Source: an uncultured Bacilli bacterium
GTDB taxonomy: Bacteria > Bacillota_I > Bacilli_A > RFN20 > CAG-826
Direction of reading: 5' to 3'
Length of the DNA: 64,000 nt
NCBI GenBank assembly: GCA_944350425.1
Contig: CALVOX010000007.1
Location: forward strand, 5,617-69,616
Part shown: piece by piece, positions 1 to 19,413 of the stretch
How positions within the stretch are numbered: position 1 is the stretch's first letter
How the letters are laid out: each line of letters starts with the position of its first letter
Position numbers and translations under genes: made by a program
The notes under the pieces: generated by a model
The model's database searches: none
Told to the model about the DNA's origin: nothing
The model's input: the letters and a program-made list of their open reading frames with translations, nothing else

Positions 1-388
1 ACGGTCAAATTTCTTGTTCTTTTTTGCTTCATTATGCATCTTAAAGGCCGATTGAATGTAATATTTTCCCTTAGAATTATTCATATTTACGACAAAATCG
101 ATTTCATAAGAACATTTTTTATTATTTTCGTCAGTGCTATCAACTACTCCAACATCAACGCTATATCCTCTAGAAATTAATTAACTATAAATTAAATTTT
201 CCATTAAATGAGTTTCTTTAAATTGACGAAAGTTTAGTCTTGCATTTAATAAACCTAAATCAACTGAATAATATTTATATAGGTATATTGATTCGCCTGA
301 ACATAGAGATCCATTAAATTACGTCTACTGGGAATTTTTAGATGCTGGTGTAAAAAATGTTAAAGGCGTTAGAAAAATACATGAAGAA

Positions 389-745
389 TTGTTTGAAAAG
401 GGTCTATATAAGGTATCAAATGACCCTATTTCGTATTTGAAAAATTTAAAATCTTCTGAATTAAGAGAACTTGCAAAAAAGTTAAATCTTCAAATTAAAG
501 GGAAAAAGGATGATTTTATTAATCAAATTAAAGCGAGTGTCAACTATAATACTTTAAAAAATATTTTTGGTTATGATATGTATGAATTTTCAGAAAAAGT
601 CTTTGATTATGGGGGAATTTTTGTAGACTTTAAGCGCGAATACAATAACTCTTTATCCGATAAATCAATTTCTTTTCTTGATTTTATTAAGTTAAGAGAA
701 ACAACAAGTGTTGATGAACTTAATTATAGGTATTTAAAAAAATAA
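389..745 (+). CDS. hypothetical protein with SAP/HeH-like helix motif (LKSSELRELAKKLNLQIKGKKDDFINQI); TTG start, reading frame open back to 266
   Basis: ORF track plus manual frame extension. No RBS and no family signature beyond the SAP-like motif. May be a degraded gene. Confidence 0.3.
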   Translation: MFEKGLYKVSNDPISYLKNLKSSELRELAKKLNLQIKGKKDDFINQIKASVNYNTLKNIFGYDMYEFSEKVFDYGGIFVDFKREYNNSLSDKSISFLDFIKLRETTSVDELNYRYLKK

Positions 746-890
746 ATGACACAAAACGGCTTGAAAACTATGACAAAAATAAAAAAATGAATGTGTTCAA
801 GAGTCTAAAGATCTACTTAAAACATTTTATATTGAATTAAGTGGAACTATTTATAATGTAGAGAATTGGAAAGAATTTAAAAAAATTAGG

Positions 891-1160
891 TTGAAACCCG
901 AAAACCGGAGAGATGTTCCTATTAAATTTAATTCTAATTTAGTAAACAGCATTAAAGCTAACGCAGAATATATTAATGATGAAATGATTACTAAAGCTAC
1001 AACAGAAAAGCTGGTCTTTACTGCTTGCCCACCAGAATTATTTAAAAATATAATTAAGTTAATAATTGAAGATAAATTTGATCGAGAAACAAAAAAGAAA
1101 ATAGAAGAAGCTTTAAATAATAATCTATCTACTATTAGAAATAATTTATACGGATTTTAA
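891..1160 (+). CDS. hypothetical small protein (TTG start, frame open from 783)
   Basis: ORF track only. No RBS and no recognisable motifs. Possibly a gene remnant. Confidence 0.2.
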   Translation: MKPENRRDVPIKFNSNLVNSIKANAEYINDEMITKATTEKLVFTACPPELFKNIIKLIIEDKFDRETKKKIEEALNNNLSTIRNNLYGF

Positions 1161-1252
1161 TTAGTGAAAATCAAGTTGGTAATTAAAATCACTAAAATTT
1201 ATAGAATAAGTTGTAAATTAAATTCTAAAGAAGTTTATTAATTTTTTAGAGA

Positions 1253-2635
1253 TCAATCTTTATAAAAATCCTTTAATGTAAATAAGTTATATTTTTCTTT
1301 ATCAAAATCATTTTTAAATCCATTTTTGGAAACAAATCCTAATTTATAGAAATTTATGTCTAAATTCTTGATTTGTTCTTCCTCTTCCGTGATAACTTTT
1401 TTACCTATTTTATCTTTTGTAAATTTACATTCATATGAAATATAACCATTTTTGTCTTTAGTTACACAATCAAATTCTCTATTGGTTTTATTTTTTGCAT
1501 CGTTATAAAAATATGTTCCTATTTCTGTTATAATCGGACTAATTTCTCCTTTTATGTTTTTTCTATGTAGAAAAGATTTCGTAATTTCTTCAAATTTTTT
1601 AGGTATATAACTACTGTAAAAATCTTCTTTTATGAATGCTTCAAAAAATTGGTTTGGATTTTCTCTTAATTCAATATAAGATGGATCGTATAAATAACGA
1701 TAATAGAAACTTAAAAAATTGTCTTCAAAAACAAAGAAAGTTTTTCTATTATTAGATTTGTCATTAATTGGTGTTATTCTTTTAACGATATCCATATCTT
1801 CAAGTTTTTCTAAAAGATATTCGTTTCTGTTGTTACCCTTAGATTTGAGAGTTGAGATGATATCGGATTTTTTTGTTTTTCCTTTTGCTATAAGAGAAAT
1901 AGTTTCACTTAAAAGTGGTAAGTTTTTAGTTTCAGAATATATTGAATTTACTCCGAATTCTAGAATAGAATTTTTAGAAATAATTAAGTTCTTAATATTA
2001 TCTAAGGCTGTTAAATTGTTATTAATTAGGCTATTAAAAAATGGTAAGCCTCCAAACGTAGAATACATAATGATTTTATCTTCATCACTATAATTTTTAT
2101 AAAATAATGAAGATTCATAATAATTAAATGGTCTTACTGGAATTATATGATTAAATCTGCCATAACAATGAGAACTATGTTCAAGGAGTTTAATCATTAA
2201 ACCTACATAACTACCAGAGATAACAATCTTTAGTTTTGAATCATTAATATATTTATCAATAAATACAGCAAGGATTGATTCGACGGTAAAATCTCGTTCA
2301 AGCAAGAAAGAGAATTCATCTATAATTAAAATTATTTTTTTCGTCAAAGATTGTTCGAATATAAATTCGAAAATACCTTCAAATGAGTGAAAATCAAGAT
2401 AATTTATATTAAAAACATCTTTTATTCTTTTGCTTAGTCTTTTAATATTAAGTTCCAAAGTTCCTCTAACAGCTTCAAATTTTATGATAATGCAATCTTT
2501 AACTCCTTTTAGTGAACTATTAATTAACTCAGTTTTTCCAACTCTTCTTATTCCATAGATTAATATCGACTCAAATTTGTCGGAACTATAAGCGTTAATT
2601 AGTTCAGTTAGTTCTTTTTGTCTACCGATAAACAT
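1253..2635 (-). CDS. AAA-type ATP-binding protein (Arch_ATPase/DUF234-like architecture)
   Basis: N-terminal Walker A GIRRVGKTEL, DExx-like IIDEF, 460 aa. The family is assigned from motif layout only. Confidence 0.55.
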   Translation of the reverse strand: MFIGRQKELTELINAYSSDKFESILIYGIRRVGKTELINSSLKGVKDCIIIKFEAVRGTLELNIKRLSKRIKDVFNINYLDFHSFEGIFEFIFEQSLTKKIILIIDEFSFLLERDFTVESILAVFIDKYINDSKLKIVISGSYVGLMIKLLEHSSHCYGRFNHIIPVRPFNYYESSLFYKNYSDEDKIIMYSTFGGLPFFNSLINNNLTALDNIKNLIISKNSILEFGVNSIYSETKNLPLLSETISLIAKGKTKKSDIISTLKSKGNNRNEYLLEKLEDMDIVKRITPINDKSNNRKTFFVFEDNFLSFYYRYLYDPSYIELRENPNQFFEAFIKEDFYSSYIPKKFEEITKSFLHRKNIKGEISPIITEIGTYFYNDAKNKTNREFDCVTKDKNGYISYECKFTKDKIGKKVITEEEEQIKNLDINFYKLGFVSKNGFKNDFDKEKYNLFTLKDFYKD

Positions 2636-2647
2636 AACATTATCTCC

Positions 2648-2758
2648 TTTTACAAATAAATTTGTAACAAATTCATTTGTATTATAACTAAAAAGATTTT
2701 ATTAATAAAGCCTTATTTTCAGTTTTTACAAATAAATTTGTAACAAATCGATTTGTAT
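2648..2758. promoter_or_regulatory. two copies of a ~35-bp operator-like element (TTTTACAAATAAATTTGTAACAAAT[TC/CG]ATTTGTAT), each with nested palindromes, in the divergent promoter region
   Basis: Direct repeats read at 2648-2682 and 2724-2758. Internal palindromes TTACAAATAAATTTGTAA and ACAAATnnATTTGT. Confidence 0.4.
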
Positions 2759-2863
2759 AAAGTTAGAGATAATCATTTTCATTTACAATTTAAGTAATAT
2801 TACTTAACTAAATAGTTAAGTTTTTGTAAAATTAGAGTATTAAATCAAAAGAAAGGAGAGAAG

Positions 2864-3385
2864 ATGGAACAAAAGAAAAGTAAAGTAAAAGTTGATAAAA
2901 GAAAAGATGAAAATGGTAAAAACATCTATTCTTTTGATTTAAAGAAATTATCTAATTCAAATAAGAATATTAATAGTAATATTAAAAATAATAAAGATAA
3001 GATAAGAGTATATGCTTTTGAAATACCTATTTCAAAAGGAGACTTTTCTTTAGATAACTATGATTCATTTGATGATATTATCGATGAATTAGATCTTGAT
3101 GATGAATATAAAACTAATTTAAAAGAAGAATTACTTGAATTAACGAATAAAACAATTAAAGAAGATTTATTAGAAGAAGATAAAAATAATAATGAAGAAG
3201 ATGATGATTCTTTAGAATCTTTGATTAAGAAACTAGCTAAAACTTTAAATGAAACTAATGATAAATTATCTTTAGAAGATAAAGCTAAATTAAAAGAATA
3301 TTTAAATAACAAGAAATCTAAATTAAATGATGATTTAGATTTAAACGATAGTCCGACTAATAAGAAGAATAAGAAAGATAAGTAA
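2864..3385 (+). CDS. hypothetical acidic, low-complexity K/E/D/N-rich protein
   Basis: RBS AAAGGAGAGAAG upstream of ATG. 173 aa with biased composition. Confidence 0.45.
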   Translation: MEQKKSKVKVDKRKDENGKNIYSFDLKKLSNSNKNINSNIKNNKDKIRVYAFEIPISKGDFSLDNYDSFDDIIDELDLDDEYKTNLKEELLELTNKTIKEDLLEEDKNNNEEDDDSLESLIKKLAKTLNETNDKLSLEDKAKLKEYLNNKKSKLNDDLDLNDSPTNKKNKKDK

Positions 3386-3389
3386 TTTA

Positions 3390-4433
3390 ATGGAAGATAA
3401 AAATATTACTAATAAGGTAGGTAGTTATCTAGAAGAAATAGATAATTCTAAAAATGATACTCATATCTATGTAATCATGGGGCCAACAGCTTCTTCTAAA
3501 TCGAAGTTAGCTAGTTTTTTACTTAATTATTTAGGAGGGTCTTCTAAAGCTAAAATCATTAATTTTGATGCTTATCAAATATATAAAGAAATGGATATTG
3601 GTACGGCTAAACCTTCTAAAGAAGAACTAGATTTACTTTCACCTATAGATAATACTAAAACGTTACTTTTATATGATTATCTTTTACCAAGTGAATCAAA
3701 TGATATATATTTCTATCAAAATATCTCTAGAGAATTAATAAGAAAATATATTACTAATTATAACCTTATTTTTGTCGGTGGAAGTGGATTATATATTAAA
3801 GCATCATTATTTGATTATCATCTCTATAACGAAGATGATAATCAAATAAAATATAATGAAAAAGAATATGAACTTAAATATAAAGATCTAAGTAATTTAG
3901 AACTATATAATAAGTTACTTATTCTTGATAAAAATGATGCTTTAAGAATTGGAAATAATAATCGTAAAAGATTACTTAGATCTTTATATATTAATGAATA
4001 TTATCATTTAACTAAAGATGAGTTAAATGATAATGGTAAAGATAGACTATATTTTAATAATACTAGTAATGATTTAATTAAGTTTATTTATATTAATCCT
4101 AGTAAAGAGATACTTGATAAAAGAATTAGAGAAAGAGTAGAAGAAGTAATGTTTAAAGATAACTTATTACTTAATGAAGTTAAAACTATCTTAACTAAAT
4201 ATGGTTCATCTTCTAATTCTTTTAAAGCTATCGGATATAAAGAGTTTATCGATAAAGATAATAACAATGCTATTCGTAACGATTTAGATAATGTCAAAGA
4301 AGAAATAATTCGTAATACGATTAAATATGCTAAAAGACAAAGAACATTCTTTAATCATCAATTTAATAGCGTTAACGTTAATCAATATAATAGTGTAGAA
4401 GATGCTATTAAGAATATAGATGATTTTTTTTAA
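3390..4433 (+). CDS. miaA: tRNA dimethylallyltransferase-like (MiaA family, divergent)
   Basis: P-loop-like IYVIMGPTASSKSKLA followed by DAYQIYKEMDIGTAKP, compared with the MiaA motif DSMQVYRGMDIGTAKP. 347 aa. Confidence 0.5.
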   Translation: MEDKNITNKVGSYLEEIDNSKNDTHIYVIMGPTASSKSKLASFLLNYLGGSSKAKIINFDAYQIYKEMDIGTAKPSKEELDLLSPIDNTKTLLLYDYLLPSESNDIYFYQNISRELIRKYITNYNLIFVGGSGLYIKASLFDYHLYNEDDNQIKYNEKEYELKYKDLSNLELYNKLLILDKNDALRIGNNNRKRLLRSLYINEYYHLTKDELNDNGKDRLYFNNTSNDLIKFIYINPSKEILDKRIRERVEEVMFKDNLLLNEVKTILTKYGSSSNSFKAIGYKEFIDKDNNNAIRNDLDNVKEEIIRNTIKYAKRQRTFFNHQFNSVNVNQYNSVEDAIKNIDDFF

Positions 4434-4485
4434 TATGATTATTTCTCAAATAAATATATATTTAATAACTAATTAAATAAAGTAA

Positions 4486-4526
4486 AACAGGAAGCTAATT
4501 TAGCTTCCTGTTTATTTGTTTTGTTT
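4486..4526. terminator. bidirectional rho-independent terminator (AACAGGAAGCTA-ATT-TAGCTTCCTGTT) flanked by A and T runs
   Basis: Perfect 12-bp stem read directly. It lies between convergent miaA and the lipoprotein A extension. Confidence 0.6.
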
Positions 4527-4556
4527 ACTAATTTTTATTTTATTAGTATTGATTTA

Positions 4557-5063
4557 TTACTTAAGAACAACCTTTACATCAGCTGGTGTAGCACCTTCAG
4601 CTTCAACTGTTCCAGTAATTGTAAGAGATGTAGCTCCATCAACGTTAACGAGTTTTGCAAAATCTTCCATTGAAAGTTTAATTGAAACTTCATTATCGTT
4701 AATTGTGGCTTCGCCCAATGATGTTTCTACATCCTTAATGGATTTAGAAGTAGCATAAGAAGTATCATCAAGTTTTACGTTACCTAAATTAATTTTTAAT
4801 GTAACGGATTGAAATACTTGAGAAACAGTGGAATAAATCAATTTACCATTATTATCAGAACTTAGATATGTTCTTAATTTAGTAATATCATATTCAACGC
4901 CATAATCGTTACTTGATAATAATTGCATATAGCCAACAAAAGGATTTTCTTCAGCTGAGTCAAAGCCTAAATCTCCAAGTAATCCTGTTAATTTCATGAC
5001 TTCAACTTCTTTAGTTTCATCATTAAATGCGGCTTCACTTCCTGAATCTAATCCAAGAATGAA
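4557..5063 (-). pseudogene. in-frame C-terminal continuation of lipoprotein paralog A, separated from 5064-7709 by a single TAA and with no other stop
   Basis: Same frame as 5064-7709 (5064-4557=507). Hand translation across 4998-5063 is open: ...GLK*FILGLDSGSEAAFNDETKEVEVMKLTG... Confidence 0.5.
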
Positions 5064-7709
5064 TTATTTTAGTCCTGTATATGCAGATCCATCTCCATTG
5101 ACATCGCCTAAAACGATGCTAGCTCCGCTTAATTGAATATCAGATATTAGTTGCCTGGGATTTTCCTCAGCACCTAAAACTTCAGTTGTTAAATCAATGA
5201 ATGCATTAACAGATGTAATAGTTTTGCAACTTAAGTCAATTGCGCCACTAGTTGCACTATCTTTGATTACATAACCAGTTGCAGTTCCATCTTTTGCAAC
5301 AACCTTATGACCAATAAATGATAACAATTCATTATATTGTTTGCCATAAACAACTGATTCTTGAACTGTACAATCACTGATTAAATTTTGATATTTTTGA
5401 TTTAACCAATTCTTTGTTTCGCTTAAGAAGTTAGCAACATCAGCATCATATAATGAAGTTAAATTAGAATTAGTTGTAAATCTATTTACTGTACTAACAC
5501 TAGCTTCACCTGAAATGATGTCGTCGACCATATCATCGAATGCTTCTTTGAAAGTTGAAACGTTATTTTCTTCAGCATTGAAGAAATCTTCGTATCCTTC
5601 TTCAACAGCAGTAACAAATGCATGAACTTTCTTATCTAATGTTCCTAAAGCTTTACCTGCGGTTTGTAAGCCTTCTGCAGCAGAAGCTAAATCTTTCATA
5701 GTGGAAAGTTTGTTATTTGTCCAAGTTGTAGTAATATCAGCTACTGTGACATAATTTGAACTTTCTAATTCTTTTGGTAAATATTTTTCACCTAATTTTG
5801 TTTTGAAATCAGCAACGACATCTTTGTATCTAGCAGATTGTCTTGTTAAAGCTACTTGTAAATTTTGTTTAACGGCAGCAACGTTTGCACATGATTTTAA
5901 TTGTCCTTCATATGTAGAAACGATGGATGCGTATAAGGAAGGATTGCTATTTTTGACTTTTGAATATACGGAATATTTTCCTAAATCAGCACCAACTTCA
6001 ACATAACCGTCTTTATTTACTGTATTACCACTTGCTAAATAAGGGTTTGCATATTCTTTATCCCAAGTTAAAACGTTAGCAACAGATTTGAAACCTACTA
6101 ATTTTTGTCCTTGATAAACTGGAGCACCGAAAATTGAACCATAAAGTGGATCTTTTGCTGCGATTTCTTCGGCTTGAGCTTTTAATGTTTTTAATGCGTC
6201 AGCAACAGCGTTTTCAATACGTTCTGCTTTGAAAGCTTGAAGACCATTAGCGACAACTGCATCTTCTAAAGCGATTTCGATTCTACCGATTAAGCCAGAA
6301 GTTGCATCAACATAGGATTCAATTGTTTTTGAATTGTCCTTATCTTCATTAACGAAGTTAGAAACAGTACCTTCAACAACGCCTTTTAATGTGACTTTAG
6401 CATTTGGAGAAGATGATAATGATTTAGCATCATCAATTTCTTTTGTGTATGAAGCAACAATACCTTCGACTAATTTTTCTTTAACGCCATCATATGTATC
6501 ATTGATTGCATCAACGCCTTCTTTTTGTAAAGCAATTTCGTTTTTGTTATTTAATGGTAATTCTGTTGCAGCACTTACTTTTGATGCATATTCTTCATAA
6601 ACTGCTCCAGGTAAAGTTTCAACTGATACACCATATTGAGCAAGTAAAGTAACCATTGCATCATAAGCTTCTTCAGCATTCTTATTTGCTTCTGGATCTA
6701 ACCAATCTTCTTTTGTAATTAAAGTTTCATAAGCATCTTGTAAACCTTCTAATGCAGTTTGCTTTCTTAAAGTTAATGTTGTTAATGTACCTTCAGCGAA
6801 AATAACTTTTGTTCCATCTTTACAAGCATGTTCGTTAACAACTTTAGAAATTTCTTCTAATGTTGTAGCAGCTTCGATAGCTGCTTTTGCAGTTTCTGCA
6901 TCTTTAGTTGAATCTTCTTCAGTGTATTTTTCGTTTGTAACACCTTCGATTAAGTCATCAACCATTGATGGTGCTAAAGATTTAGCATTATCAACCAATA
7001 ATTTATATTCATTTTGTAAAACTGTAACACCTTCTTGAGCAGCTTTTTTAGCAGCTTCTAATTTTTCAGTAGCAGTAGCACTATCTTCTAAATCGTTTAC
7101 AGCGTCTTCTACGTCGCCTTTTAATTCTTCTAATTTATCAAATAATGAATCATCAGCAAATGTAGCCTCAGCATATAAAGCATTTACACCTTTATCATCT
7201 TTTGTTCCATCTGGTGCTCTGAAAATTAAATGATCTTTATCAGTGATTTCTTCTAAGGCATTTTCTAATAAAGATTGTCCATATGAAGTTGCATCATTCC
7301 ATACTGCACCTGTTACTTGGATTGTACCATCATAAACATCAGCATCAGAAATAGTATAAGTTGAAGATGCAGGATCAAAATCAGTTACTGGTTCACCATT
7401 GATTTCAAAATAGACGAGTAAATTTTTAGTTTCATCTTTTGGTGTGAAAGTGAATGTTACTTTATCGTGTTCGCCTTCTGTAACGAAGTAAACATCTTGT
7501 TTAACACTACCACCTTGAATGTTATTGTCATTAATAACGATGACATCTTTGTAGGTTTTACCATCAACACCATCTTTACCTGGTTGACCGTCTTCCCCTG
7601 GTTTGCCTGGTTCACCTGGTGTACCTGGAGTTGTTTGATTACATGAAGAAACAACTAAACCTAAGGATAAGCATAAAGCTCCTAAAGTTAATAAATTTTT
7701 CTTTTTCAT
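5064..7709 (-). CDS. large surface lipoprotein, paralog A (881 aa to the TAA; ~1051 aa if read through), collagen-like GXY tract after the lipobox
   Basis: Signal peptide MKKKNLLTLGALCLSLGLVVSSC (lipobox VSSC), then GTPGEPGKPGEDGQPGKDGVDGK. Homologous throughout to the 8700-11687 and 11815-14835 proteins. Confidence 0.8.
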   Translation of the reverse strand: MKKKNLLTLGALCLSLGLVVSSCNQTTPGTPGEPGKPGEDGQPGKDGVDGKTYKDVIVINDNNIQGGSVKQDVYFVTEGEHDKVTFTFTPKDETKNLLVYFEINGEPVTDFDPASSTYTISDADVYDGTIQVTGAVWNDATSYGQSLLENALEEITDKDHLIFRAPDGTKDDKGVNALYAEATFADDSLFDKLEELKGDVEDAVNDLEDSATATEKLEAAKKAAQEGVTVLQNEYKLLVDNAKSLAPSMVDDLIEGVTNEKYTEEDSTKDAETAKAAIEAATTLEEISKVVNEHACKDGTKVIFAEGTLTTLTLRKQTALEGLQDAYETLITKEDWLDPEANKNAEEAYDAMVTLLAQYGVSVETLPGAVYEEYASKVSAATELPLNNKNEIALQKEGVDAINDTYDGVKEKLVEGIVASYTKEIDDAKSLSSSPNAKVTLKGVVEGTVSNFVNEDKDNSKTIESYVDATSGLIGRIEIALEDAVVANGLQAFKAERIENAVADALKTLKAQAEEIAAKDPLYGSIFGAPVYQGQKLVGFKSVANVLTWDKEYANPYLASGNTVNKDGYVEVGADLGKYSVYSKVKNSNPSLYASIVSTYEGQLKSCANVAAVKQNLQVALTRQSARYKDVVADFKTKLGEKYLPKELESSNYVTVADITTTWTNNKLSTMKDLASAAEGLQTAGKALGTLDKKVHAFVTAVEEGYEDFFNAEENNVSTFKEAFDDMVDDIISGEASVSTVNRFTTNSNLTSLYDADVANFLSETKNWLNQKYQNLISDCTVQESVVYGKQYNELLSFIGHKVVAKDGTATGYVIKDSATSGAIDLSCKTITSVNAFIDLTTEVLGAEENPRQLISDIQLSGASIVLGDVNGDGSAYTGLK

Positions 7710-7779
7710 AAATTAATTTAATCTCCTTAATGTAAAAAGAAAGTTTCTATTAAATAAGTGTTAGAAGAAAAAGAAAAAT
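7630..7779 (-). repeat. 5' cassette of paralog A (70-nt 5'UTR plus the first ~80 nt of CDS), identical to 14756-14905 as a direct repeat and inverted relative to the B copy
   Basis: Base-by-base comparison of 7630-7779 with 14756-14905. Confidence 0.8.
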
Positions 7780-7932
7780 TTAATCATATTAGCTAATAGC
7801 CATACATTTATTGTGTTTTAAAACTTTGATTTTTATATAGTTCTAAACAAAATAACTTTTTAGTTTTTAATACTAAAATTTTTGAATAATAAACCTTTGA
7901 AATAGAAACTTTTTTATTTTTAACTATTTTTT

Positions 7933-7940
7933 TGTATAAT
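7933..7940 (+). promoter_or_regulatory. extended -10 element TGTATAAT preceded by a T7 tract, inside the 1-kb ORF-free spacer
   Basis: TTTTTTTGTATAATAATC read directly. It is followed by the hairpin TGTCTTTC-TTTA-GAAAGACA at ~7976-7995. Confidence 0.3.
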
Positions 7941-8564
7941 AATCGGAGTTAAAATTCTAGTGATTATTAAAATTTTGTCTTTCTTTAGAAAGACATGATT
8001 CTAAAGAAAGTTACAAATTATTCTAAAAAAGCTCTTAAAGTGACACTAGTAGAAAATTAGTAAAAATGTATTGCATAATAGAAACTTTAATAGTATTATA
8101 TAGGTGTCGTTATGGAACGTAACTCTTTTTGTTATCGAAAAATTAATTAAAATAAATAATGATTATTGTTATTGCTATAACATACTATTAATCATTATTT
8201 AGATAAATTGATTTAGCGATAATCTTAATTAGAAAGAATTAATTAATGTATTATCTACTTAATTAATTAAGAAAGAGTGGATTAAAGATGTAATAGTTAT
8301 TGCTTCGTTTAAATTGTTTAAATAAAGATAACTATCTACATGAATCGATAACTATTTATTATATTGTCTTAAGTTATCTTTATTACTTCTTAGCAAGTAG
8401 CTAAGAAGATTAAAATCAACCTGATGTTGATTTTAATTAAACAAGTTAGATAGTACTTAATAATTGTTATTTTCTTTGGTTCACAAACTGCTATTAATTA
8501 AATAGAAATACATAAAATTAATTTGATCTTGTTAGGAAAGTTGTTAACTCTAATTTGTCAATTA

Positions 8565-8593
8565 AAAAAGTAAATAATATATAAGAGGACAAT
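8565..8593 (+). promoter_or_regulatory. sigma-A promoter for lipoprotein B (TTGTCA-17 nt-TATATA), ~107 nt upstream of its ATG
   Basis: -35 at 8565-8570, 17-nt spacer, -10 at 8588-8593. Confidence 0.5.
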
Positions 8594-8654
8594 TAGATTA
8601 GATAAGTTTACTAATCATTTGAAGTCAAATTTAGACTCGTGGTTATATTACTTA

Positions 8655-8848
8655 TTTAATAGAAAGTTTCTTTTTACATTAAGGAGATTAAATTAATTTA
8701 TGAAAAAGAAAAATTTATTAACTTTAGGAGCTTTATGCTTATCCTTAGGTTTAGTTGTTTCTTCATGTAACAACACTCCTGAAAAAGGCGATCCAGGTGA
8801 ACCAGGTGTAGATGGTCAACCAGGTAAAGATGGTGTCGATGGAAAAAC
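8655..8848 (+). repeat. ~194-bp 5' cassette of paralog B (UTR + signal peptide + GXY region), an inverted repeat of 14687-14880 with one mismatch
   Basis: Direct comparison. Identity runs through codon 51 (…GVDGKTY) and then breaks. Confidence 0.8.
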
Positions 8849-11687
8849 CTATGTCCCAATTATTGTTGTTAACGATTTAAACATCAAAGGTGGAACTATT
8901 GACCAAGACGTTTATTTTGCAGTACAAGGTGAACATGATAAAGTAACTTTCACATTCACAGCAGAAAGTGAAGGAAATGTAATTACTTATTTTGAAATTA
9001 ATGGTGAAGAAGTAAGCATTGCTCCAGATGCAACAAGTTATACTGTTGAAGATATTGATACATCTTATCCAAATGGTATTCAAGTTACTGGATTAACATA
9101 TCAAAGTCTTGATGCTTATGCTACAACCGGTGTAAAGGATTTCTTCAAAACAATTTCTGATGCTGATAATCAAGTTAAAAACGGCACTGAACCAGAAGGC
9201 TTAGTAAAGAGTGCATATTACGATGTTACTTTAGAACAACTTGTTACTGAAAAAGTCGAAGAAGTTAAAAAGGCTTATACTGATTTAGGCAAAGATGCTA
9301 CTGTAACCGAAAAAGTTGAAGCTATTAAAACAGCAACAAAAAAAGCTGAAGCTGAAATCCAAGAAGCATATGATAATTTAGTTACAGCTGCTAAAAACAC
9401 TGCTAAAACTGCATTAAAAACTTTAGATGAATCTTTAGTAAATAGCAATTATACTGAAGCAGATAGAAAAACTGTTTTAGATACAGCAAATGCTGAAGTC
9501 GATGCTGCAACTTCTTTACAAGGATTAGCTGCAGTCGTTAATACTGCTACAGCAAATCTTAAAGGCGCTAAATATAACAAATTATTCGCTCTTAAAGCTC
9601 AAGCTTTTGCTGAAATTAAATCAGCCGTTGAAGCAACTGGCTCATTTGAAAAAGATGTCGAAGCTAATAAAGATATCTTAGCAGATTATGGTATTACTGC
9701 TGATTCAAAACCAAGCGTAATCGCTAAAACATATTATGCTCAAGCTTCTGCTGCTACAGAAATTACTACTGTTGTAGTTGAAGAAAACGGAGTAAAAACT
9801 ACTTTAACATCAATTGGTAAAGAAGCTAAAGAAGCAATCGAAGCTTCAGTTGATAGCGTTAAAGGAACATTACTTGCTAATATTAAAGCTGCTTATATCG
9901 CTGAAGTCGATAATTCTAAAGTTTTAGCTGATGCTCAAAATGCTGCTTCTACAATTAAAGGTGTCATTGAAGCAACAGTTTCTAACTTTGAAGTTCAAGC
10001 AGAAGCTGACCCAACTCACTACACAATTTCAACATTTGTTTCTACAACTGGTACAGATGGTCACACAGCATTAAATTATGATTATACAGATGGCTTAATC
10101 TATAGACTTGAAAAAGCTGTTACAGAAGCTGTCGTTGCTAATGGTGTTCAAGCTTTCAATAGCGAAAGAATCGAAAATGCAAAACAAGCTGCTATTGCTT
10201 CATTCCAAGAAAAAGTTGATGAAATTAAAGCTGCTGATGCCGGATACGTTGAAGCAGTTTCTTATACAAAAGATTCATCTGGTAAGATTACACCAAAGAA
10301 AACATCTTGGGTTCTTGCGACTGTAGAAGAAACAAATGTTACTTTAGATACTCCTTTCTTTACTTCTACTGGAGAAGGTGAAGGAAAAACTTGGTCACTT
10401 GTTGCTCCAGAAACAGGATTAGTTACAGAAGAAGGTGGTAAACGCTTAACAGACTATAATGTTGACACTTGGTTAACAACATTAAAAGGAGTTACTTTAT
10501 CTTCTCCATTAGTTGTTAAACGATTTGAATCAACTCATATTGGTGATTTTGAAAAGATTTATGATAAAGCAATCGAGGTATTAACAAAATCATTAAGAAC
10601 AAAACTTGCTCTTGGTGATATTGAAGGAGAATATATTTCTTCAGATGATGTCTTAACCTCTTTCAATAATAGTGTTAAAGATAAGACTTTAAACGAAATT
10701 ATTAAGGTTGGACAATCCACATATGCTTCAAAAGAATTATTAACTAAATTAAATGATGCTGTTGAAGATGATATTGCTGCAAGGGTTGAAAAAGATAGTG
10801 CTTATGAAGCCTTATTTGGTAGCGAAGAAACATCCGTTTATAGAGAAGAATTAGGCAATTTAGTTGATTCATTAGTTTCTGGACAAGCAGGAGAAAGTGA
10901 AGTTAACGCATTCATTGAAGAAGATAATTTAAATTCTTTATACGCTCAAGATGTTGCAACATATCTTGACGATGCAAAAGATGTCTTAACACAAGTTTAT
11001 CAAAACTTAATTAGTGGAAAAGATGTCTCCGTTGATGAATACAGAACATTAACAAAACTCTATAACGATTATAATTCTTGGATTGGTCAAAAGATTAAAC
11101 AAAATTCAGACGGCGAATGGGTCCTTGATGAAAAAGGTTCAGTAGTCTATCCATGTAACACTATAACAACAGTTGATAAATGGTTAGCAGATGCTAGATT
11201 ATCTTTATCAAATGTAACAAGCGATGAGGAAGAAACAAATGAAATTACAGCTTTAAAACTTTATAGTTTAAAGACAGGAAATGCTGGTATAGATGCTATT
11301 CTAGGCATTAAATTTGATGGTAATTTAAATATCACAGGAGATGCAGAAAACCCATCTGATTACACTTCTCAAATAAGTGGCTTAGAAAATTTAAGTGATT
11401 TATTAAGTTTAGAAAAACTTACTCTAACAGGAAAAGTTGGTCTAGCAAAAAGCGTTAACAACGAAAATACTGCAGATTATCTTTGCCAAGTTACTAAAGT
11501 TGAAGTAAAGAAAGGTGAAGAAGTATCCAAAGATTTCACTTTAGAATTTGATGGAGAAAATGCAACATTTTCAGTTGATATGACTTCACTTCAAAGAGGT
11601 GTAAAATACACTGTTTCAATTACTGTTGCTTCCCCAGTAATTAATGAACAAACTTTTGCCTTCACAGTCACATTACCATCTGAATAA
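8700..11687 (+). CDS. large surface lipoprotein, paralog B (995 aa)
   Basis: RBS AAGGAGA. Lipoprotein signal with VSSC lipobox, GXY tract, and blocks shared with C (LANIKAAYIAEVDNSKVLAD, YPCNTITTVDKWLADAR). Confidence 0.85.
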   Translation: MKKKNLLTLGALCLSLGLVVSSCNNTPEKGDPGEPGVDGQPGKDGVDGKTYVPIIVVNDLNIKGGTIDQDVYFAVQGEHDKVTFTFTAESEGNVITYFEINGEEVSIAPDATSYTVEDIDTSYPNGIQVTGLTYQSLDAYATTGVKDFFKTISDADNQVKNGTEPEGLVKSAYYDVTLEQLVTEKVEEVKKAYTDLGKDATVTEKVEAIKTATKKAEAEIQEAYDNLVTAAKNTAKTALKTLDESLVNSNYTEADRKTVLDTANAEVDAATSLQGLAAVVNTATANLKGAKYNKLFALKAQAFAEIKSAVEATGSFEKDVEANKDILADYGITADSKPSVIAKTYYAQASAATEITTVVVEENGVKTTLTSIGKEAKEAIEASVDSVKGTLLANIKAAYIAEVDNSKVLADAQNAASTIKGVIEATVSNFEVQAEADPTHYTISTFVSTTGTDGHTALNYDYTDGLIYRLEKAVTEAVVANGVQAFNSERIENAKQAAIASFQEKVDEIKAADAGYVEAVSYTKDSSGKITPKKTSWVLATVEETNVTLDTPFFTSTGEGEGKTWSLVAPETGLVTEEGGKRLTDYNVDTWLTTLKGVTLSSPLVVKRFESTHIGDFEKIYDKAIEVLTKSLRTKLALGDIEGEYISSDDVLTSFNNSVKDKTLNEIIKVGQSTYASKELLTKLNDAVEDDIAARVEKDSAYEALFGSEETSVYREELGNLVDSLVSGQAGESEVNAFIEEDNLNSLYAQDVATYLDDAKDVLTQVYQNLISGKDVSVDEYRTLTKLYNDYNSWIGQKIKQNSDGEWVLDEKGSVVYPCNTITTVDKWLADARLSLSNVTSDEEETNEITALKLYSLKTGNAGIDAILGIKFDGNLNITGDAENPSDYTSQISGLENLSDLLSLEKLTLTGKVGLAKSVNNENTADYLCQVTKVEVKKGEEVSKDFTLEFDGENATFSVDMTSLQRGVKYTVSITVASPVINEQTFAFTVTLPSE

Positions 11688-11728
11688 AATAATTGTTATC
11701 TTAAATTATTTAAAAGATATTTATAAAA

Positions 11729-11762
11729 AAACAGAAAACCTATAAAAGTTTTCTGTTTTTTA
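11729..11762. terminator. bidirectional terminator (AAACAGAAAAC-loop-GTTTTCTGTTT) between convergent B and C
   Basis: 11-bp stem, A-run upstream and T-run downstream. Confidence 0.6.
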
Positions 11763-11814
11763 TTATCTTTAATTAATTAAAGATATTATAAAATAAATCT
11801 AATTAAATTTAAGA

Positions 11815-14800
11815 TTATTCACCGGTTGTAACTAATTCGGAGAAATCTAATTGAATAGTTTTTACAACATTTGTTCCAGCTGCATCATAGATTTCAATTG
11901 TTAAGAAATCTTTATCATTATAATCAGCTTTAGATCCTTCAGCACCACTAACAGCAACTAAAGTTAAGAATGAACTTGAAGTTTGATTCTTTACTTCTGA
12001 AATTCCTGTTTTGTAGTCTGCAGCAGTTGCAGATCTATAAGTTACTACTTTATATCCAGGTGTTTTTTCCCATCTGAATAAGAAGACTTGTGTGTTTTCT
12101 TTATAAGCTTCACCCCAAGAAGTACCAGCTAAATCTTTACCTGCACTAACTGTTTTGCCTTCAACTTTAATATTTACAAGTGCATCTGTTGCTGATGTAA
12201 CTTCGAACTTTAATGATGGGTCATTTTTAAGAGTGATATCAACACCACCAATTGTTAATGTTCCTTCTTCAACGCTTTCAACAACGACATCTGGTGTAAC
12301 TTCATATGTAGGTGTAGTTCCAGATTTGCTTAATGAAGTTCTAGCATCATTTAACCATTTGTTAACTGCATGTAAAGTATCACATGGATAAACGACTTTA
12401 CCATTTTCTTCATCTAATACCCAAGCGTCACTTTCGTTTTTAACAATCTTTGCACCGATGAATGAAATATAGTCATTATAAACTTTTTGATAATTTCTAT
12501 ATTGTTCAACTGAAACTAAATCCTCACTAATTTTGTTTTGATAAATTTGTGCTAAAACATCTTTAGCATCAGTTAAGTAATCGTTAACATCGCTTGCATA
12601 TAAAGAATCTAAGTTAGCTTTAGTAACAAATGATGTAACATCACTTTCACCAGCTGCACCTGTTAATAATTTAGTAATCATATCATTTACAGCAGCTCTA
12701 TATGAAGAGTTAGAAGTTGGTTGTACTGGATCTCCGCCATCGAAGAATACCTTATAACCATTATCTTTAACGTCTCTTGCTTTAACATCGCTTGCAATTG
12801 CCTTATCAAGAGTAACTAATGAATCTGATGAGGATGTAGTTGATTGAGCGACTTCTAATATTTCATCAAAAGTTTTATTCTTAACAGCTTCATCAAACTT
12901 GCTGCTTACTTGTTCTGTGCTAACATATGTGCCCTTAGTTTTAGGTAATGATTCTGCTTTTAATTCAGAAACATAGAGTGCTTTAGCAGCATCATAGATT
13001 TTTTTGAAATCACCAGTATGAGCTGTTTCCCATTTCTTAACTTCTAATACAGGGTAAGTACCAGCAATTGTTGCTTCCTTTAATTCGCCTAACCAATCTT
13101 CTACGCTATATCCACTTAATACAGCGCCTGTACCTGTTGATGTAGAAGAAGCTTCAGTAATTTGAAGACCACTTACTTCTGGTAAACTATATGTCTTTTC
13201 TGTATCACCAGTAACAGCAAATAATGGGTTATCAATTTTTACTGCAGGGTTAGCTGTACTGTCTAATACATATTCTTTAACAGTTGGAGTAACAACACCA
13301 TCTGCTTCTTTATATGAGACTGCTTTAACGTAACCTGCATCTGCTTTAATTTCATTGACTTTTGCTTCAAATGCTTCAATAGCATCTTGTTTAGCGTTTT
13401 CTAATCTTTCATTACTGAAAGCAACGTTACCGGATTGAGTAATAACTTTGGCTAAAGCTACTTCTAAGTCATAAATTAATTGACCTGATTCTGTAGTACC
13501 GACATAATCAGATAAATTCTTTGTATCCTTATCTAATACGATGTAGTTTGAACAAACAGTTTCGATAACACCTTTAATAGTTGATGCAGCATTTGGTTGA
13601 TCTGCTAAAACTTTGGAATTATCAACTTCTGCGAGATAAGCAGCTTTGATATTAGCAAGTAATGTTTCTTTAACACCCTTTGTTGCTGCGTCAATAGCGG
13701 CTTTACATTCATTAACTAAAACGATTTCGCCATCTTCGTTAACTTCAATTGTAGTTGCTTCAGAAATTTGATCTGTATATGTTTTTGCAATAGCTGCTGG
13801 ATCTTGATCTAAAGAAACACCCCATTCTTCTAATGCAGCTTTTGTTCCTTCATCAGCAAATTCTTCAACATATCCTTTAATTGCAGGAGTATCGAGGTAA
13901 GCAGCGATTTGGTTTAAAGCTTGATTCTTTAAGTTATAAAGTTTGTTGTATTGAGCATCAGCAGTTAAAGCAGAACCATTAATAATTTTACTTAAACCTT
14001 CTAATGTTGTAGCTGCATCAATAGCTGCTTTTCCTTCAGCTAAGATTGCTTCTCTATCTTCGTCTAAGAATGTTTCTTGAGTAAGTGCAGCATCTAATGC
14101 TTCTAAGTGTCCTTCAGCTAAAACTTTTTTATCAGCTAAGACTTCGGCATAAGCTTCATCAAGAGCTTTGATAGCTTCGTTAGCAGCAGTTTCACCTGCA
14201 GTTAATCTTTCTTGAATAGTAGCATCTTCTTCTAATTCTGATAAAGCAGTTCCAATATCTAATTTACCTTGTTTGTAAACACCTTCTAATGTTTTATCAG
14301 CGTATGCTGATTGTTTATCTGCAGCAGGTGTTTCAGCTGTTTCACCAACATTTGTAACGATTTGGCTATCGTTAGCGACCATTGATTTCCAGTGTTCTTC
14401 TAAAAGTTTTGTTGAAACAGATAATGCATCACCGAAGACTGCACCAGTAACTTGAATTGAACCTTGATATACATCTGCATCAGTTAAAGTATAAGAGGTT
14501 GAACCTGGAACTAAATCTGTAACTACTTTGTTATTAATTTCTAAAGAAACGATGAATTCATCAGCGTTTTCAGCTGTGAAAGTAAATGTAACGCTATCGT
14601 GTTGGCCTTCTGTTACAAAGAAAACACTTTGTTCGACATCACCACCAACGAGGTTATCATCGTGAATAACAATAACATCTTTATAAGTTTTACCATCGAC
14701 ACCATCTTTACCTGGTTGACCATCTACACCTGGTTCACCTGGATCGCCTTTTTCAGGAGTGTTGTTACATGAAGAAACAACTAAACCTAAGGATAAGCAT

Positions 14801-14835
14801 AAAGCTCCTAAAGTTAATAAATTTTTCTTTTTCAT
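11815..14835 (-). CDS. large surface lipoprotein, paralog C (1006 aa)
   Basis: First 51 aa and the 5'UTR are identical to B. The rest is a mosaic homolog of both B and A. Confidence 0.85.
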   Translation of the reverse strand: MKKKNLLTLGALCLSLGLVVSSCNNTPEKGDPGEPGVDGQPGKDGVDGKTYKDVIVIHDDNLVGGDVEQSVFFVTEGQHDSVTFTFTAENADEFIVSLEINNKVVTDLVPGSTSYTLTDADVYQGSIQVTGAVFGDALSVSTKLLEEHWKSMVANDSQIVTNVGETAETPAADKQSAYADKTLEGVYKQGKLDIGTALSELEEDATIQERLTAGETAANEAIKALDEAYAEVLADKKVLAEGHLEALDAALTQETFLDEDREAILAEGKAAIDAATTLEGLSKIINGSALTADAQYNKLYNLKNQALNQIAAYLDTPAIKGYVEEFADEGTKAALEEWGVSLDQDPAAIAKTYTDQISEATTIEVNEDGEIVLVNECKAAIDAATKGVKETLLANIKAAYLAEVDNSKVLADQPNAASTIKGVIETVCSNYIVLDKDTKNLSDYVGTTESGQLIYDLEVALAKVITQSGNVAFSNERLENAKQDAIEAFEAKVNEIKADAGYVKAVSYKEADGVVTPTVKEYVLDSTANPAVKIDNPLFAVTGDTEKTYSLPEVSGLQITEASSTSTGTGAVLSGYSVEDWLGELKEATIAGTYPVLEVKKWETAHTGDFKKIYDAAKALYVSELKAESLPKTKGTYVSTEQVSSKFDEAVKNKTFDEILEVAQSTTSSSDSLVTLDKAIASDVKARDVKDNGYKVFFDGGDPVQPTSNSSYRAAVNDMITKLLTGAAGESDVTSFVTKANLDSLYASDVNDYLTDAKDVLAQIYQNKISEDLVSVEQYRNYQKVYNDYISFIGAKIVKNESDAWVLDEENGKVVYPCDTLHAVNKWLNDARTSLSKSGTTPTYEVTPDVVVESVEEGTLTIGGVDITLKNDPSLKFEVTSATDALVNIKVEGKTVSAGKDLAGTSWGEAYKENTQVFLFRWEKTPGYKVVTYRSATAADYKTGISEVKNQTSSSFLTLVAVSGAEGSKADYNDKDFLTIEIYDAAGTNVVKTIQLDFSELVTTGE

Positions 14836-14905
14836 AAATTAATTTAATCTCCTTAATGTAAAAAGAAAGTTTCTATTAAATAAGTGTTAGAAGAAAAAGA
14901 AAAAT
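14687..14905 (-). repeat. 5' cassette of paralog C; inverted repeat partner of 8655-8848 and direct repeat partner of 7630-7779
   Basis: Direct sequence comparison. Confidence 0.8.
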
Positions 14906-14966
14906 ATCTTCCTACTAAGATTTTTTAGTAGGAAGATTGTGTAATAAGAACGTTTCTTATTACACA
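14906..14966 (-). terminator. two tandem perfect hairpins (12-bp stem ATCTTCCTACTA/TAGTAGGAAGAT and 13-bp stem TGTGTAATAAGAA/TTCTTATTACACA) between the recombinase 3' end and the lipoprotein C 5'UTR
   Basis: Stems read directly. On the minus strand they are followed by a T-rich run (ATTTTTCTTTTTC). Confidence 0.5.
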
Positions 14967-15085
14967 TATTAACTTTTTATTAGAACCATAAAAAATAATA
15001 AATTAATAAGAGTAGTAGTTAATATCATAAGTACTATTAATCCTATGATATTTGTCAATCTAAAATTATTTTAAAAATATTTATC

Positions 15086-16288
15086 TTAATCATTAGGAGT
15101 AATCTTTTTTAAAATCTTAGTAGCTTCTTCTAAAGCTTTATTGTCATCAATATAGTTATTTTCATTAATAAAATCACTTGCTTGACCAAGAAGTGTTTTT
15201 CTCGATTTAGAAGAAGCACCAGCATTATATAATTCAGTATTAATTGATTTTCTAGAGAATCCATGAATAGTGTTATAAGGAATAGAAGCTTTTAAACAAT
15301 ATCTTTTAAGTTTTTTTCTTATTCCACTATTGGTGTAATTAAATAAGATTGCTTCTTGATTATCAATTAAGTTATTTACTTCTAAATATTCTTTAAGTAA
15401 CTTAACATTGTTATTTGTATATATAATCGTTTTATAAGAAGAAGAGGTTTTAAGTCTAGAAGTTAGTCTTCCGTTAATTTGAAGTTTCTGTCTAGAAATA
15501 TTAATTAAAGCAATATTCTTTCTATTATCAAAAGAAATATCTTTAACTTTAATACCTAAGAATTCTCCAATTCTTAAAGAAGAAAAATAAAGTAATGTGA
15601 ACATTACTTTATCATTAAAGTTGTCAATAACTTTAATTAATTTCATTAATTCTTCTTTAGAAGTATATTTATTTCTTGATACTTTCTTTATTTCAACTTT
15701 CGATTTAAATTTAACTAAGATAAGTAATAAATCATCTTTATCTTCACTATTAATTAAACGTAACTTTCTCGAATATTCAATTAACTTTATTAATATTGAT
15801 AATATTTGGTTCTTTAAATGAGTAGAAACATTTAAAGAACCAAGATAGTTTCTAAATAAAGTTAATTCTTCTATTGAATATAATCTATTTATATCATTAT
15901 TAAAGTAATTATAGATATGATGATAAAACAATCGATCTAGATTATAGATATAAGATGTTGATAATTCATCTTTTCTAGAACTGATATAAAAAGAATATAG
16001 TTTCTCTAATGTAAATAAAGAGATATCTAATCTTTTAATATTCTTATTATTCTTATTAGAAGAATTAAGAGATAATAACGAAGATGAAAGTAGTTTATCA
16101 AGATCATTAATTCGTTTTACTAATACTTTAGTTAAAGTTTCTTCTAAGTTAGAAACATAAGTTTTATCTTCAAAACTTAAGTTATCATTATCACTAATAA
16201 ATAAATGATAGTAGTTACCATTATTATCGAGTTTTATTCTCTTATCGATATAATAATGATTTGTTTTTTTATTTAAAATAACACTCAT
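15086..16288 (-). CDS. tyrosine site-specific recombinase (phage-integrase family)
   Basis: Box I-like SLRIGEFLGIKVKDI (Arg), box II-like HGFSRKS…LLGQAS, and a C-terminal Tyr in NNYIDDNKA. RBS AGGAGG. 400 aa. Confidence 0.8.
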   Translation of the reverse strand: MSVILNKKTNHYYIDKRIKLDNNGNYYHLFISDNDNLSFEDKTYVSNLEETLTKVLVKRINDLDKLLSSSLLSLNSSNKNNKNIKRLDISLFTLEKLYSFYISSRKDELSTSYIYNLDRLFYHHIYNYFNNDINRLYSIEELTLFRNYLGSLNVSTHLKNQILSILIKLIEYSRKLRLINSEDKDDLLLILVKFKSKVEIKKVSRNKYTSKEELMKLIKVIDNFNDKVMFTLLYFSSLRIGEFLGIKVKDISFDNRKNIALINISRQKLQINGRLTSRLKTSSSYKTIIYTNNNVKLLKEYLEVNNLIDNQEAILFNYTNSGIRKKLKRYCLKASIPYNTIHGFSRKSINTELYNAGASSKSRKTLLGQASDFINENNYIDDNKALEEATKILKKITPND

Positions 16289-17645: not shown

Positions 17646-18209
17646 ATGAAAAACTTTTTTAAAGATTTTTTTAGTGTAAAGATGATTGCTTTAAATGCAA
17701 TTATCGCCGCAATTTATGCAGTGCTTACAATTGCATCAGGACCACTTTCCTACAATTATTTCCAATTTAGAGTAAGTGAATTTTTAAATCTTTTAGTATT
17801 TTTTAATCCTAGTTATACTTTAGGTTTAACAGTTGGATGTTTAATTGCTAATTTGGCTTCATTTGCCGGAATATATGATATTATCTTCGGAACACTTGCA
17901 ACACTTGTATCTTGCTTACTTATGATACCTTTTGCAAAACTTACCAAAAACTTATTCTTTGCAACATTTATTCCAAGTTTGATTAATGCAATTACTGTTC
18001 CTTTTATTATATATTTAGCTTCTTTAGGAACTGGTGATGAATTTGCTTTAAGTTCAATAATGTATTTTACGATGTTTGGTTGGACTTTCTTAGGGGAGTT
18101 CATTGCAATAACGATTTTAGGCTATGTAATTTTTATGCCTTTAATGAAAAAAGTTCACTCTTTTCCAAAGCTTATTAATGCGAGAACTAACCTAGATTTT
18201 AAGTGGTAG
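17646..18209 (+). CDS. queT: queuosine-precursor transporter QueT (ECF-type S component)
   Basis: 187-aa polytopic membrane protein directly upstream of tgt-queA-queH. RBS GGGGGA. Confidence 0.6.
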   Translation: MKNFFKDFFSVKMIALNAIIAAIYAVLTIASGPLSYNYFQFRVSEFLNLLVFFNPSYTLGLTVGCLIANLASFAGIYDIIFGTLATLVSCLLMIPFAKLTKNLFFATFIPSLINAITVPFIIYLASLGTGDEFALSSIMYFTMFGWTFLGEFIAITILGYVIFMPLMKKVHSFPKLINARTNLDFKW

Positions 18210-18243
18210 AAAAGATATAATTTTTAAACTTATATAAGGATGA

Positions 18244-19413
<1,170 letters not shown>

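Follow-up and report, generated by a model that had tools for sequence, protein, structure and literature searches.

The 64,000-nucleotide (nt) stretch of DNA analysed here, which we call the window, comes from an uncultured Bacilli bacterium (contig CALVOX010000007.1; 28.8% G+C) and contains three paralogous surface lipoprotein genes beside a gene for a tyrosine recombinase. Gene A is on the reverse strand, with an open reading frame (ORF) at 5064-7709 that encodes 881 amino acids (aa) and an in-frame continuation to 4557. Gene B is on the forward strand (8700-11687, 995 aa), and gene C is on the reverse strand (11815-14835, 1006 aa). B and C are convergent, and between them lies a hairpin resembling a bidirectional terminator (11726-11761, z = -5.4). 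The recombinase gene (15086-16288, reverse strand, 400 aa) is located 250 nt from gene C. The A, B and C proteins have a common N-terminus, MKKKNLLTLGALCLSLGLVVSSC; in 3/3 genes the signal peptide contains the lipobox MKKKNLLTLGALCLSLGLVVSS followed by the invariant Cys23, from which lipidation is predicted, and 7-8 Gly-X-Y triplets come next.

How far does the similarity of the three genes extend? A 5' cassette of 122 nt, from -50 to +72 relative to the ATG, is common to A, B and C, the sole difference being a G or C at window position 8666. The pairwise repeats are longer: B and C share an inverted repeat of 210 nt at 97% identity (8643-8852 and 14683-14892), A and B an inverted repeat of 128 nt (7639-7766 and 8643-8770), and A and C a direct repeat of 153 nt (7639-7791 and 14765-14917). 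An 82-nt cassette probe matches three times in the 64 kb, versus 0 matches expected. Past the cassette, the nucleotide identity of the paralogs is about 50-60%, and protein identity is 36% for A/B and 45% for B/C. An earlier model-made reading of the letters, here the sequence-only reading, had described three paralogs with identical 5' cassettes next to a tyrosine recombinase, and the 122 shared nt with their single difference, together with a PF00589 match for the recombinase, bear it out; the lengths it gave for the shared boxes, 140-194 bp, are corrected here to 128-210 nt. It assumed the standard genetic code, and this fits the window: under translation table 11 there are 52 ORFs that reach 150 aa or more, only three of which end in TGA. 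A reading under code 4 was rejected as unnecessary, since table 11 suffices. G+C content is 33-34% in the lipoprotein genes, 21% in the recombinase gene, 20% in the spacer between A and B and 23-30% in the flanks.

The paralogs had been put at about 1000 aa each, which holds for B and C; gene A is ended early by an in-frame TAA (5064-5066), after which 168 further in-frame codons run to 4557, so that read-through would give a protein of about 1050 aa. This TAA is kept in every contig of the strain that carries gene A, and the A-like proteins of other strains are longer (1100-1104 aa; P0045-P0048), for which reasons we regard gene A as a truncated allele or a pseudogene in the making. The proposed collagen tract is likewise right in part: the Gly-X-Y triplets are present, but the window genes fall below the cut-off of the Pfam Collagen model (PF01391), with 19.5 bits against 27.2 for gene A and no match for B and C. 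At the equivalent position in distant family members the same model scores 30-56 bits, above the cut-off. Besides Collagen, weak in the window genes, no Pfam or NCBIfam domain was found in the lipoproteins. An exhaustive profile search of 1.84 billion representatives yielded 79 clusters at E <= 1e-10, with weaker matches covering the signal peptide and collagen part only; the family is small, lineage-restricted and uncharacterised. Across it the signal peptide does not vary, though identity in the mature parts falls as low as 26-35%, a pattern that fits concerted evolution of the 5' cassette. The AlphaFold model of the gene B protein (mean predicted local distance difference test score 78.8) starts with a disordered Gly-X-Y stalk, goes on to an immunoglobulin (Ig)-like sandwich (approximately residues 50-135) and ends, after a long helical body, in a beta C-terminus that is poorly modelled. 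A fold search with this model against the PDB gave no significant match, only generic Ig-like matches with E > 0.09.

Exact inversions of two segments

Contigs for comparison were found by exact-protein look-up and come from several ENA and Logan assemblies. Outside the cassette each gene is preceded by an upstream region of its own, and we refer to these slots as U_A, U_B and U_C after the gene that each adjoins in the window. The gene order of ERZ28614751:scaffold_313 is that of the window, recombinase-C-B-A, while that of ERZ28614154:scaffold_870 is A-C-B-recombinase. Base-by-base comparison shows that segment II (8651-14884, 6,234 nt), which holds the convergent pair B and C, is present in the latter scaffold as its exact reverse complement with 0 mismatches, and that the flanks match the window without a single mismatch (left, 8,650 nt; right, 6,000 nt). 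Segment I (7759-8650, 892 nt) lies between the divergent genes A and B, its left end being U_A and its right end U_B, and ORF and Rfam checks found neither an ORF nor an RNA family match within it. It is exactly inverted, again with 0 mismatches, in ERZ24773420:NODE_5089 (L015), a contig otherwise identical over gene A and 7.7 kb of flank in which U_B precedes gene A.

The same BRZ_KR sample also contains a 6.4-kb contig with B and C and U_C sequence at both ends, so that the U_C-B and U_C-C junctions both exist in one sample. In a second strain (strain 2, L030), which is 94-96% identical in nucleotide sequence and has only two paralogs, the gene pair occurs in both orientations between flanks that show 0 mismatches over 6,231 and 6,805 nt. 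Across different contigs U_B is joined to B, to C and to A. A table of every junction at every locus fits a model of four states in which the two segments share a central site: S1, with U_A-A, U_B-B and U_C-C; S2, with U_A-A, U_B-C and U_C-B; S3, with U_A-B, U_B-A and U_C-C; and S4, with U_A-C, U_B-A and U_C-B. The inversions are precise and conservative. Heterogeneity of orientation had been named in advance as a test of the locus, and it is seen here in the exact flips of 8651-14884 and 7759-8650, in the mixed sample and in strain 2.

One event can be mapped closely. The two arms of the B/C repeat differ at cassette position 17, which is G at 8666 and C at 14869, and in the inverted scaffold this marker travels with its gene while the slot-specific U sequence stays put. 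The crossover therefore lies within 16 nt, ACTTATTTAATAGAAA, at -50 to -35 from the ATG. This interval, bounded by the point at which the U sequences diverge (8649/8650) and by the marker at 8666, is the outermost 16 nt of the 210-nt B/C repeat. The new junctions, U_B followed by C and U_C followed by G, span 17 nt, less than any assembly k-mer; they must accordingly have been present in reads, which excludes a misjoin for this event.

Could the alternative arrangements nevertheless be artefacts, orientations chosen arbitrarily across inverted repeats in the assembly of short-read metagenomes? Many contigs do break at the cassette, and one ENA scaffold is joined by 'NN' within the signal-peptide repeat (L023, 11480-11490), from which it follows that some public scaffolds bridge the locus by read pairs alone; the segment I and strain 2 flips, moreover, need repeats of 122-200 nt to be resolved. 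Against this, the two S2 junctions are absent from S1, and a de Bruijn assembler needs reads in order to build them; the swap is reciprocal at both ends with all else at 0 mismatches; both junction types occur at k-mer scale in one sample; and two strains, several samples and two projects agree. We consider an artefact very improbable. Logan contigs that end 210 nt past the recombinase stop codon were also considered as a sign of heterogeneity and were rejected, their ends being the point at which the k=31 paths of U_A and U_C converge.

A 22-nt core site

What is the nature of the crossover site? Each start codon is preceded, at 58 to 37 nt upstream, by a core of about 22 nt, and the three copies are oriented -, + and -. 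In gene orientation, site 1 (7745-7766, reverse strand) reads TTCTAACA-CTTATT-TAATAGAA; it is the segment I junction in L015. Site 2 (8643-8664, forward strand) reads TTATATTA-CTTATT-TAATAGAA; it is the central site common to both segments and is followed by the G marker at 8666. Site 3 (14871-14892, reverse strand) again reads TTCTAACA-CTTATT-TAATAGAA and is followed by the C marker at 14869. The left arm lies in slot-specific DNA, being TTCTAACA in U_A and U_C and TTATATTA in U_B, and the right arm lies in the gene-linked cassette. The geometry TTCTA-N12-TAGAA is found at sites 1 and 3. Such a layout of arm, spacer and arm is typical of tyrosine recombinase cores.

Comparison with other species points the same way. 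In a related species (L017/L027) the A/C difference at site position 1 remains with the U side. In a distant species (L024), whose lipoproteins are 26% identical, an exact copy of the 24-nt element GTTCTAATTTTTAAGAAATAGAAC stands upstream of each of three paralogs. This element has the TTCTA-N12-TAGAA geometry and is the only exactly shared upstream sequence, the 5' regions differing otherwise; a fourth copy with one mismatch lies nearby. Together, the mapped crossover, the geometry of the core and these two comparisons indicate site-specific rather than homologous recombination. The sequence-only reading had proposed inversion between conserved 5' boxes; inversion is indeed seen, and the site is the core of about 22 nt at the upstream edge of the boxes rather than the boxes as a whole.

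A different account accepts the inversions as real and ascribes them to general, RecA-type homologous recombination between the 128-210-nt repeats, with the integrase a bystander, perhaps one left behind by a lost prophage. Repeats of this length would suffice, the closest relatives of the recombinase are prophage integrases, the strain 2 recombinase lies at some distance from the lipoprotein genes, and only one event carries a marker. Against this account, the marked crossover falls in the outermost 16 nt of the repeat, the core is built of arm, spacer and arm like a tyrosine recombinase site, and in a distant species, where the 5' regions of the paralogs have diverged, the sole exactly conserved upstream stretch is a 24-nt element with this geometry. 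The recombinase, in addition, is retained next to the locus in all strains seen, with intact catalytic residues and no prophage genes near it. We judge the RecA account to be quite unlikely, and site-specific recombination at the core site is the reading followed below.

The right-arm motif ATAGAAACTTT occurs in two extra copies, at 7902-7912 and 8078-8088, and 5/5 copies in the 64-kb window lie in the locus, versus 0.74 expected. The invertible spacer also contains, at 8508-8550, a decayed and reverse-oriented relic of the 5' untranslated region (UTR) and ATG. Given decayed cassette relics in the same segment, the extra motif copies may be fossils of lost paralogs, or else accessory binding sites.

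The size of the locus varies, with two genes in L030, three in the window and four in L027. In L027 (ERZ16268124 scaffold_7, 1-14500) the miaA-proximal paralog, P0049, has no recombination site, its cassette homology beginning only at -34. Another paralog there is disrupted into ORFs of 728 and 138 aa beside a perfect 41-nt tandem duplication (5127-5208), and the orientation of the spacer relative to miaA is opposite to that in L017. The 452-nt invertible spacer of L024 includes a GC-rich alternating tract, TATACGCGTATACGCGCGTACGCGCAC (5800-5850), amid AT-rich DNA.

Upstream slots and recombinase

As the crossover is upstream of the common 5' UTR, inversion leaves the proteins unchanged and swaps only the upstream region to which each gene is joined; a switch at this locus must consequently act on transcription. 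Which slot is expressed? On the U_B side of the spacer, a non-coding element of 620 nt (8030-8649, forward strand) is conserved across species, with 92% identity to the related species L027 and 96.9% to strain 2; as yardsticks, identity is 86-88% in the miaA coding sequence and 59% in the U_A-proximal part. The element has no ORF and no Rfam match, and we predict from its sequence that it holds the single promoter. U_B is unique among the slots. Its left arm, TTATATT, provides a -10-like TATATT at 8645-8650, preceded by GTGG. By comparison, U_C contains tandem strong hairpins (14906-14966, reverse strand; -31.6 kcal/mol, z = -9.6), the second of which (14937-14906) is followed by AUAUUUUUCUUUU to give an intrinsic terminator that abuts site 3, ending about 20 nt from it. 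In strain 2 the U_C-type hairpin keeps its stem and differs in its loop, though no gene reads into the hairpin there. U_A and U_C share a 20-nt tract, ATTTTTCTTTTTCTTCTAAC, beside the site, and the slots of strain 2 are exactly one of U_B type and one of U_C type.

We propose that U_B is probably the single expression site and carries the only promoter, that U_C is probably silent and insulated by its terminator, and that U_A can be assumed to be a silent slot. The joining of B, C and A each to U_B in one contig or another is consistent with this assignment. The 620-nt element may also act as a regulatory region or hold accessory or arm-type DNA for recombinase binding. With regard to the promoter itself, two manually chosen candidates, TTGAAG-N19-TATATT before site 2 and TTGTCA-N17-TATATA at about 8559-8587, were set aside for lack of conservation or odd spacing, and the evidence retained for a promoter is the overlap of TATATT with the left arm of site 2, which we read as suggestive.

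The same site-specific inversion could also operate with another polarity of expression, with promoters in U_A (perhaps also in U_C) and U_B silent, or with all slots transcribed so that only the level changes. In favour of this, -10-like hexamers stand just before the shared T-rich tract of U_A in both species, and the four-state model lets every gene meet U_A as well as U_B. U_C, however, has the same site-adjacent sequence as U_A and yet only about 20 nt up to a strong terminator, too short a distance to accommodate a promoter; the two slots of strain 2, of U_B type and of U_C type, agree with a single ON and a single OFF position; and the U_B region is 92-97% conserved where the U_A-proximal part is conserved at 59%. 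These alternatives are, in our view, unlikely, and we retain U_B as the probable expression site.

Two further structures were noted in the spacer. At 8386-8437 there are two tandem hairpins (z = -5.7) whose stems are conserved between species while their loops vary (CTGAT, CCAGA and CAAGA), a pattern that suggests selection for structure; they may constitute a bidirectional terminator or insulator. At 7976-7995 a hairpin with an 8-bp stem, TGTCTTTC-TTTA-GAAAGACA, forms a conserved island in the poorly conserved U_A half, and in L027 its loop is TAAA, the reverse complement of TTTA.

The recombinase is of the phage-integrase type (PF00589, E = 5.8e-14), and its best family match, over residues 20-395, is the PHROG_1 integrase (E = 1e-20). 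Throughout its family of 32 clusters the catalytic residues R239, K280, H342, R346 and Y379 are invariant, and the H/W position is Q369, conserved family-wide, prophage integrases included. With the XerC, XerD and XerA models it reaches only 24-52 bits, where their cut-offs are 220-335, and by these three models, rather than by the Xer1 or HvsR sequences themselves, the enzyme classifies as a phage-type integrase and not as Xer-like. Its nearest relatives outside the species, at 40-49% identity, are located at prophage ends beside repressor, RecT, YqaJ and SSB genes, with one such homolog standing isolated. In the window itself the neighbours are DJ-1, queT, tgt, queA and ribosomal protein genes, which indicates that the recombinase is not part of an integrated element here; an unrelated integrated element had been foreseen as a possible source of the gene, and these neighbours speak against it. 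The 64-kb window contains no other recombinase, and the gene is adjacent to the locus in all near-identical strains. With its prophage kin and its core-gene surroundings, it looks like a domesticated phage-type integrase, and its adjacency and the nature of the site lead us to infer that it is the invertase.

Where might such an enzyme have come from? Two prophages (L018 and L028), from related metagenome samples (projects ERZ16268xxx and BRZ_QV), encode integrases 40-42% identical to that of the locus, and prophages of this kind are a plausible source. A search beside the homologous prophage integrases did not find the TTCTAA-N10-ATAGAA core, and a descent of the site from their attachment (att) sites thus lacks evidence. 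None of the recombinase homologs at 40-49% identity adjoins lipoprotein paralogs, and the link between recombinase and lipoproteins is thus documented within the species group only. In strain 2, an insert with Fic, DUF6273 and a 277-aa protein lies between the recombinase and lipoprotein genes (L030, 4505-9690), and a nucleotidyltransferase/HepT-like toxin-antitoxin pair lies beside miaA (18051-18873).

A candidate lipoprotein switch

We propose that the locus is a site-specific DNA-inversion switch for a surface lipoprotein family, a reading that we hold to be probable. The central site 2 can recombine with either outer site. Recombination with site 1 flips the 892-nt spacer between A and B, and recombination with site 3 flips the 6.2-kb B-C pair; the two flips generate the four states, in which the coding sequences stay constant and the partner of each gene among U_A, U_B and U_C changes. 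The adjacent phage-type tyrosine integrase (15086-16288) would catalyse the inversions. U_B would be the sole promoter, its -10-like TATATT overlapping the left arm of its site, and U_A and U_C would be silent slots, the latter sealed by its terminator, with the result that one lipoprotein is expressed at a time. The purpose of such a switch could be variation of a surface antigen or receptor in the face of host immunity or phage.

Several observations weigh against this proposal. In the one marked event the exchange fell within the first 16 nt of a stretch of about 190 identical nt, an outcome with a probability of about 0.08 under uniform homologous recombination; the position of this single crossover is suggestive and, taken alone, not decisive. 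The segment I and strain 2 flips rely on assemblers having resolved the 122-200-nt repeats, the S1/S2 event being the only one that is marked. Sites 1 and 3 are direct repeats, so that a tyrosine recombinase could delete the locus. The role of the recombinase is proposed from its adjacency, and in strain 2 the gene is 5.5 kb off, behind unrelated genes. Finally, the promoter assignment draws on weak consensus matches in DNA of 20-29% G+C: a promoter scan gave fewer matches than shuffled sequence and none outstanding, and is uninformative in DNA so rich in AT, and the -10-like hexamers of U_A are TATGAT in the window and TGATATATAAA in L017/L027.

One extension of the proposal bears on the direct repeats. 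The invertase could be a prophage integrase that was domesticated but kept its N-terminal arm-binding domain in use, the 620-nt U_B element could be an arm region like that of a phage attachment site (attP), and only pairs of a U_B-type with a U_A- or U_C-type site would then synapse. We regard this idea as doubtful: were it true, it would explain both the long conserved element on one side only and the avoidance of self-deletion between sites 1 and 3, and the locus would represent a phage integration machine rewired as a partner-selective gene switch.

How does the locus compare with known systems? The sequence-only reading had likened its architecture to vsa/HvsR, vsp, mpl and shufflons; the closest match is with vpma and vsp, in the 5' UTR site and the swapping of upstream regions, rather than with vsa. 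In vpma, the recombination site is in the 5' UTR at -51 to -72, there is a single promoter and an adjacent tyrosine recombinase, and loss of xer1 gives phase-locked mutants (PMC2268961). Like the vpma locus of Mycoplasma agalactiae and the vsp locus of Mycoplasma bovis, with their recombinases Xer1 and Mbr, the locus described here is a cluster of surface lipoprotein paralogs whose 5' UTRs and signal peptides are conserved. In all of them each gene has a short site in its 5' UTR (at about -58 to -37 in the window), a tyrosine recombinase is encoded next to the cluster, and inversions rejoin gene bodies to other upstream regions; the single promoter proven there is predicted here. The differences are several. 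The recombinase is a 400-aa phage-type integrase (PHROG_1) where theirs are Xer-like. The lipoproteins, with their collagen-like tract and Ig-like domain, form an uncharacterised family that is unrelated to those of the mycoplasmas; no homology to Vsp, Vpma or Vsa was found, the Pfam and NCBIfam searches returning weak Collagen alone and the family comprising the 79 clusters at E <= 1e-10. The host, which uses the standard code, belongs to an uncultured, low-GC 'Bacilli' lineage known as a metagenome-assembled genome (MAG). Furthermore, there are 2-4 genes per locus, and one of the two invertible units is the gene-free 892-nt spacer.

The vsa locus of Mycoplasma pulmonis, with HvsR, likewise has several lipoprotein genes beside a tyrosine recombinase gene; it too undergoes inversions, and it has a single expression site, which is presumed here. 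Its site, however, is inside the coding region, and what is transferred to silent 3' gene bodies is the promoter together with the 5'-terminal 714 nt of coding sequence (PMC2268961), whereas the crossover here is upstream of the start codon and every gene is complete. Segment I on its own resembles the invertible promoters, such as Escherichia coli fimS with FimB/FimE, the Bacteroides capsule and surface-protein invertons and Mycoplasma penetrans mpl, in being short, non-coding, repeat-flanked and intergenic, and in that its orientation sets which neighbour faces which end. It differs from them in that one of its repeats is shared with a gene-carrying segment, and one switch region serves three genes rather than a single on/off choice. 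Similarly, the R64-type shufflon (Rci) and the Bacteroides and enterobacterial shufflons have several sites, one tyrosine recombinase, overlapping segments and multiple states, but what they shuffle is the 3' coding segments of a single gene; at the present locus entire genes change place relative to an upstream region, with the coding sequence left as it is.

To our knowledge, the promoter-swapping lipoprotein shufflon has so far been a textbook feature of a few pathogenic mycoplasmas. The present locus appears to work like vsp and vpma but without homology in either protein component, and the unrelated type of recombinase and unrelated lipoprotein family point to a convergent assembly of the same strategy. 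If so, this strategy extends to an uncultured, standard-code, low-GC 'Bacilli' lineage of metagenomes. In practical terms, the locus breaks or flips in short-read MAGs, and gene order there is not to be trusted. With a 22-nt site, one recombinase and a minimal two-gene version in a sister strain, it offers a compact experimental system. We propose that the collagen-tract lipoproteins are likely the dominant variable surface antigens, or phage receptors, of this lineage.

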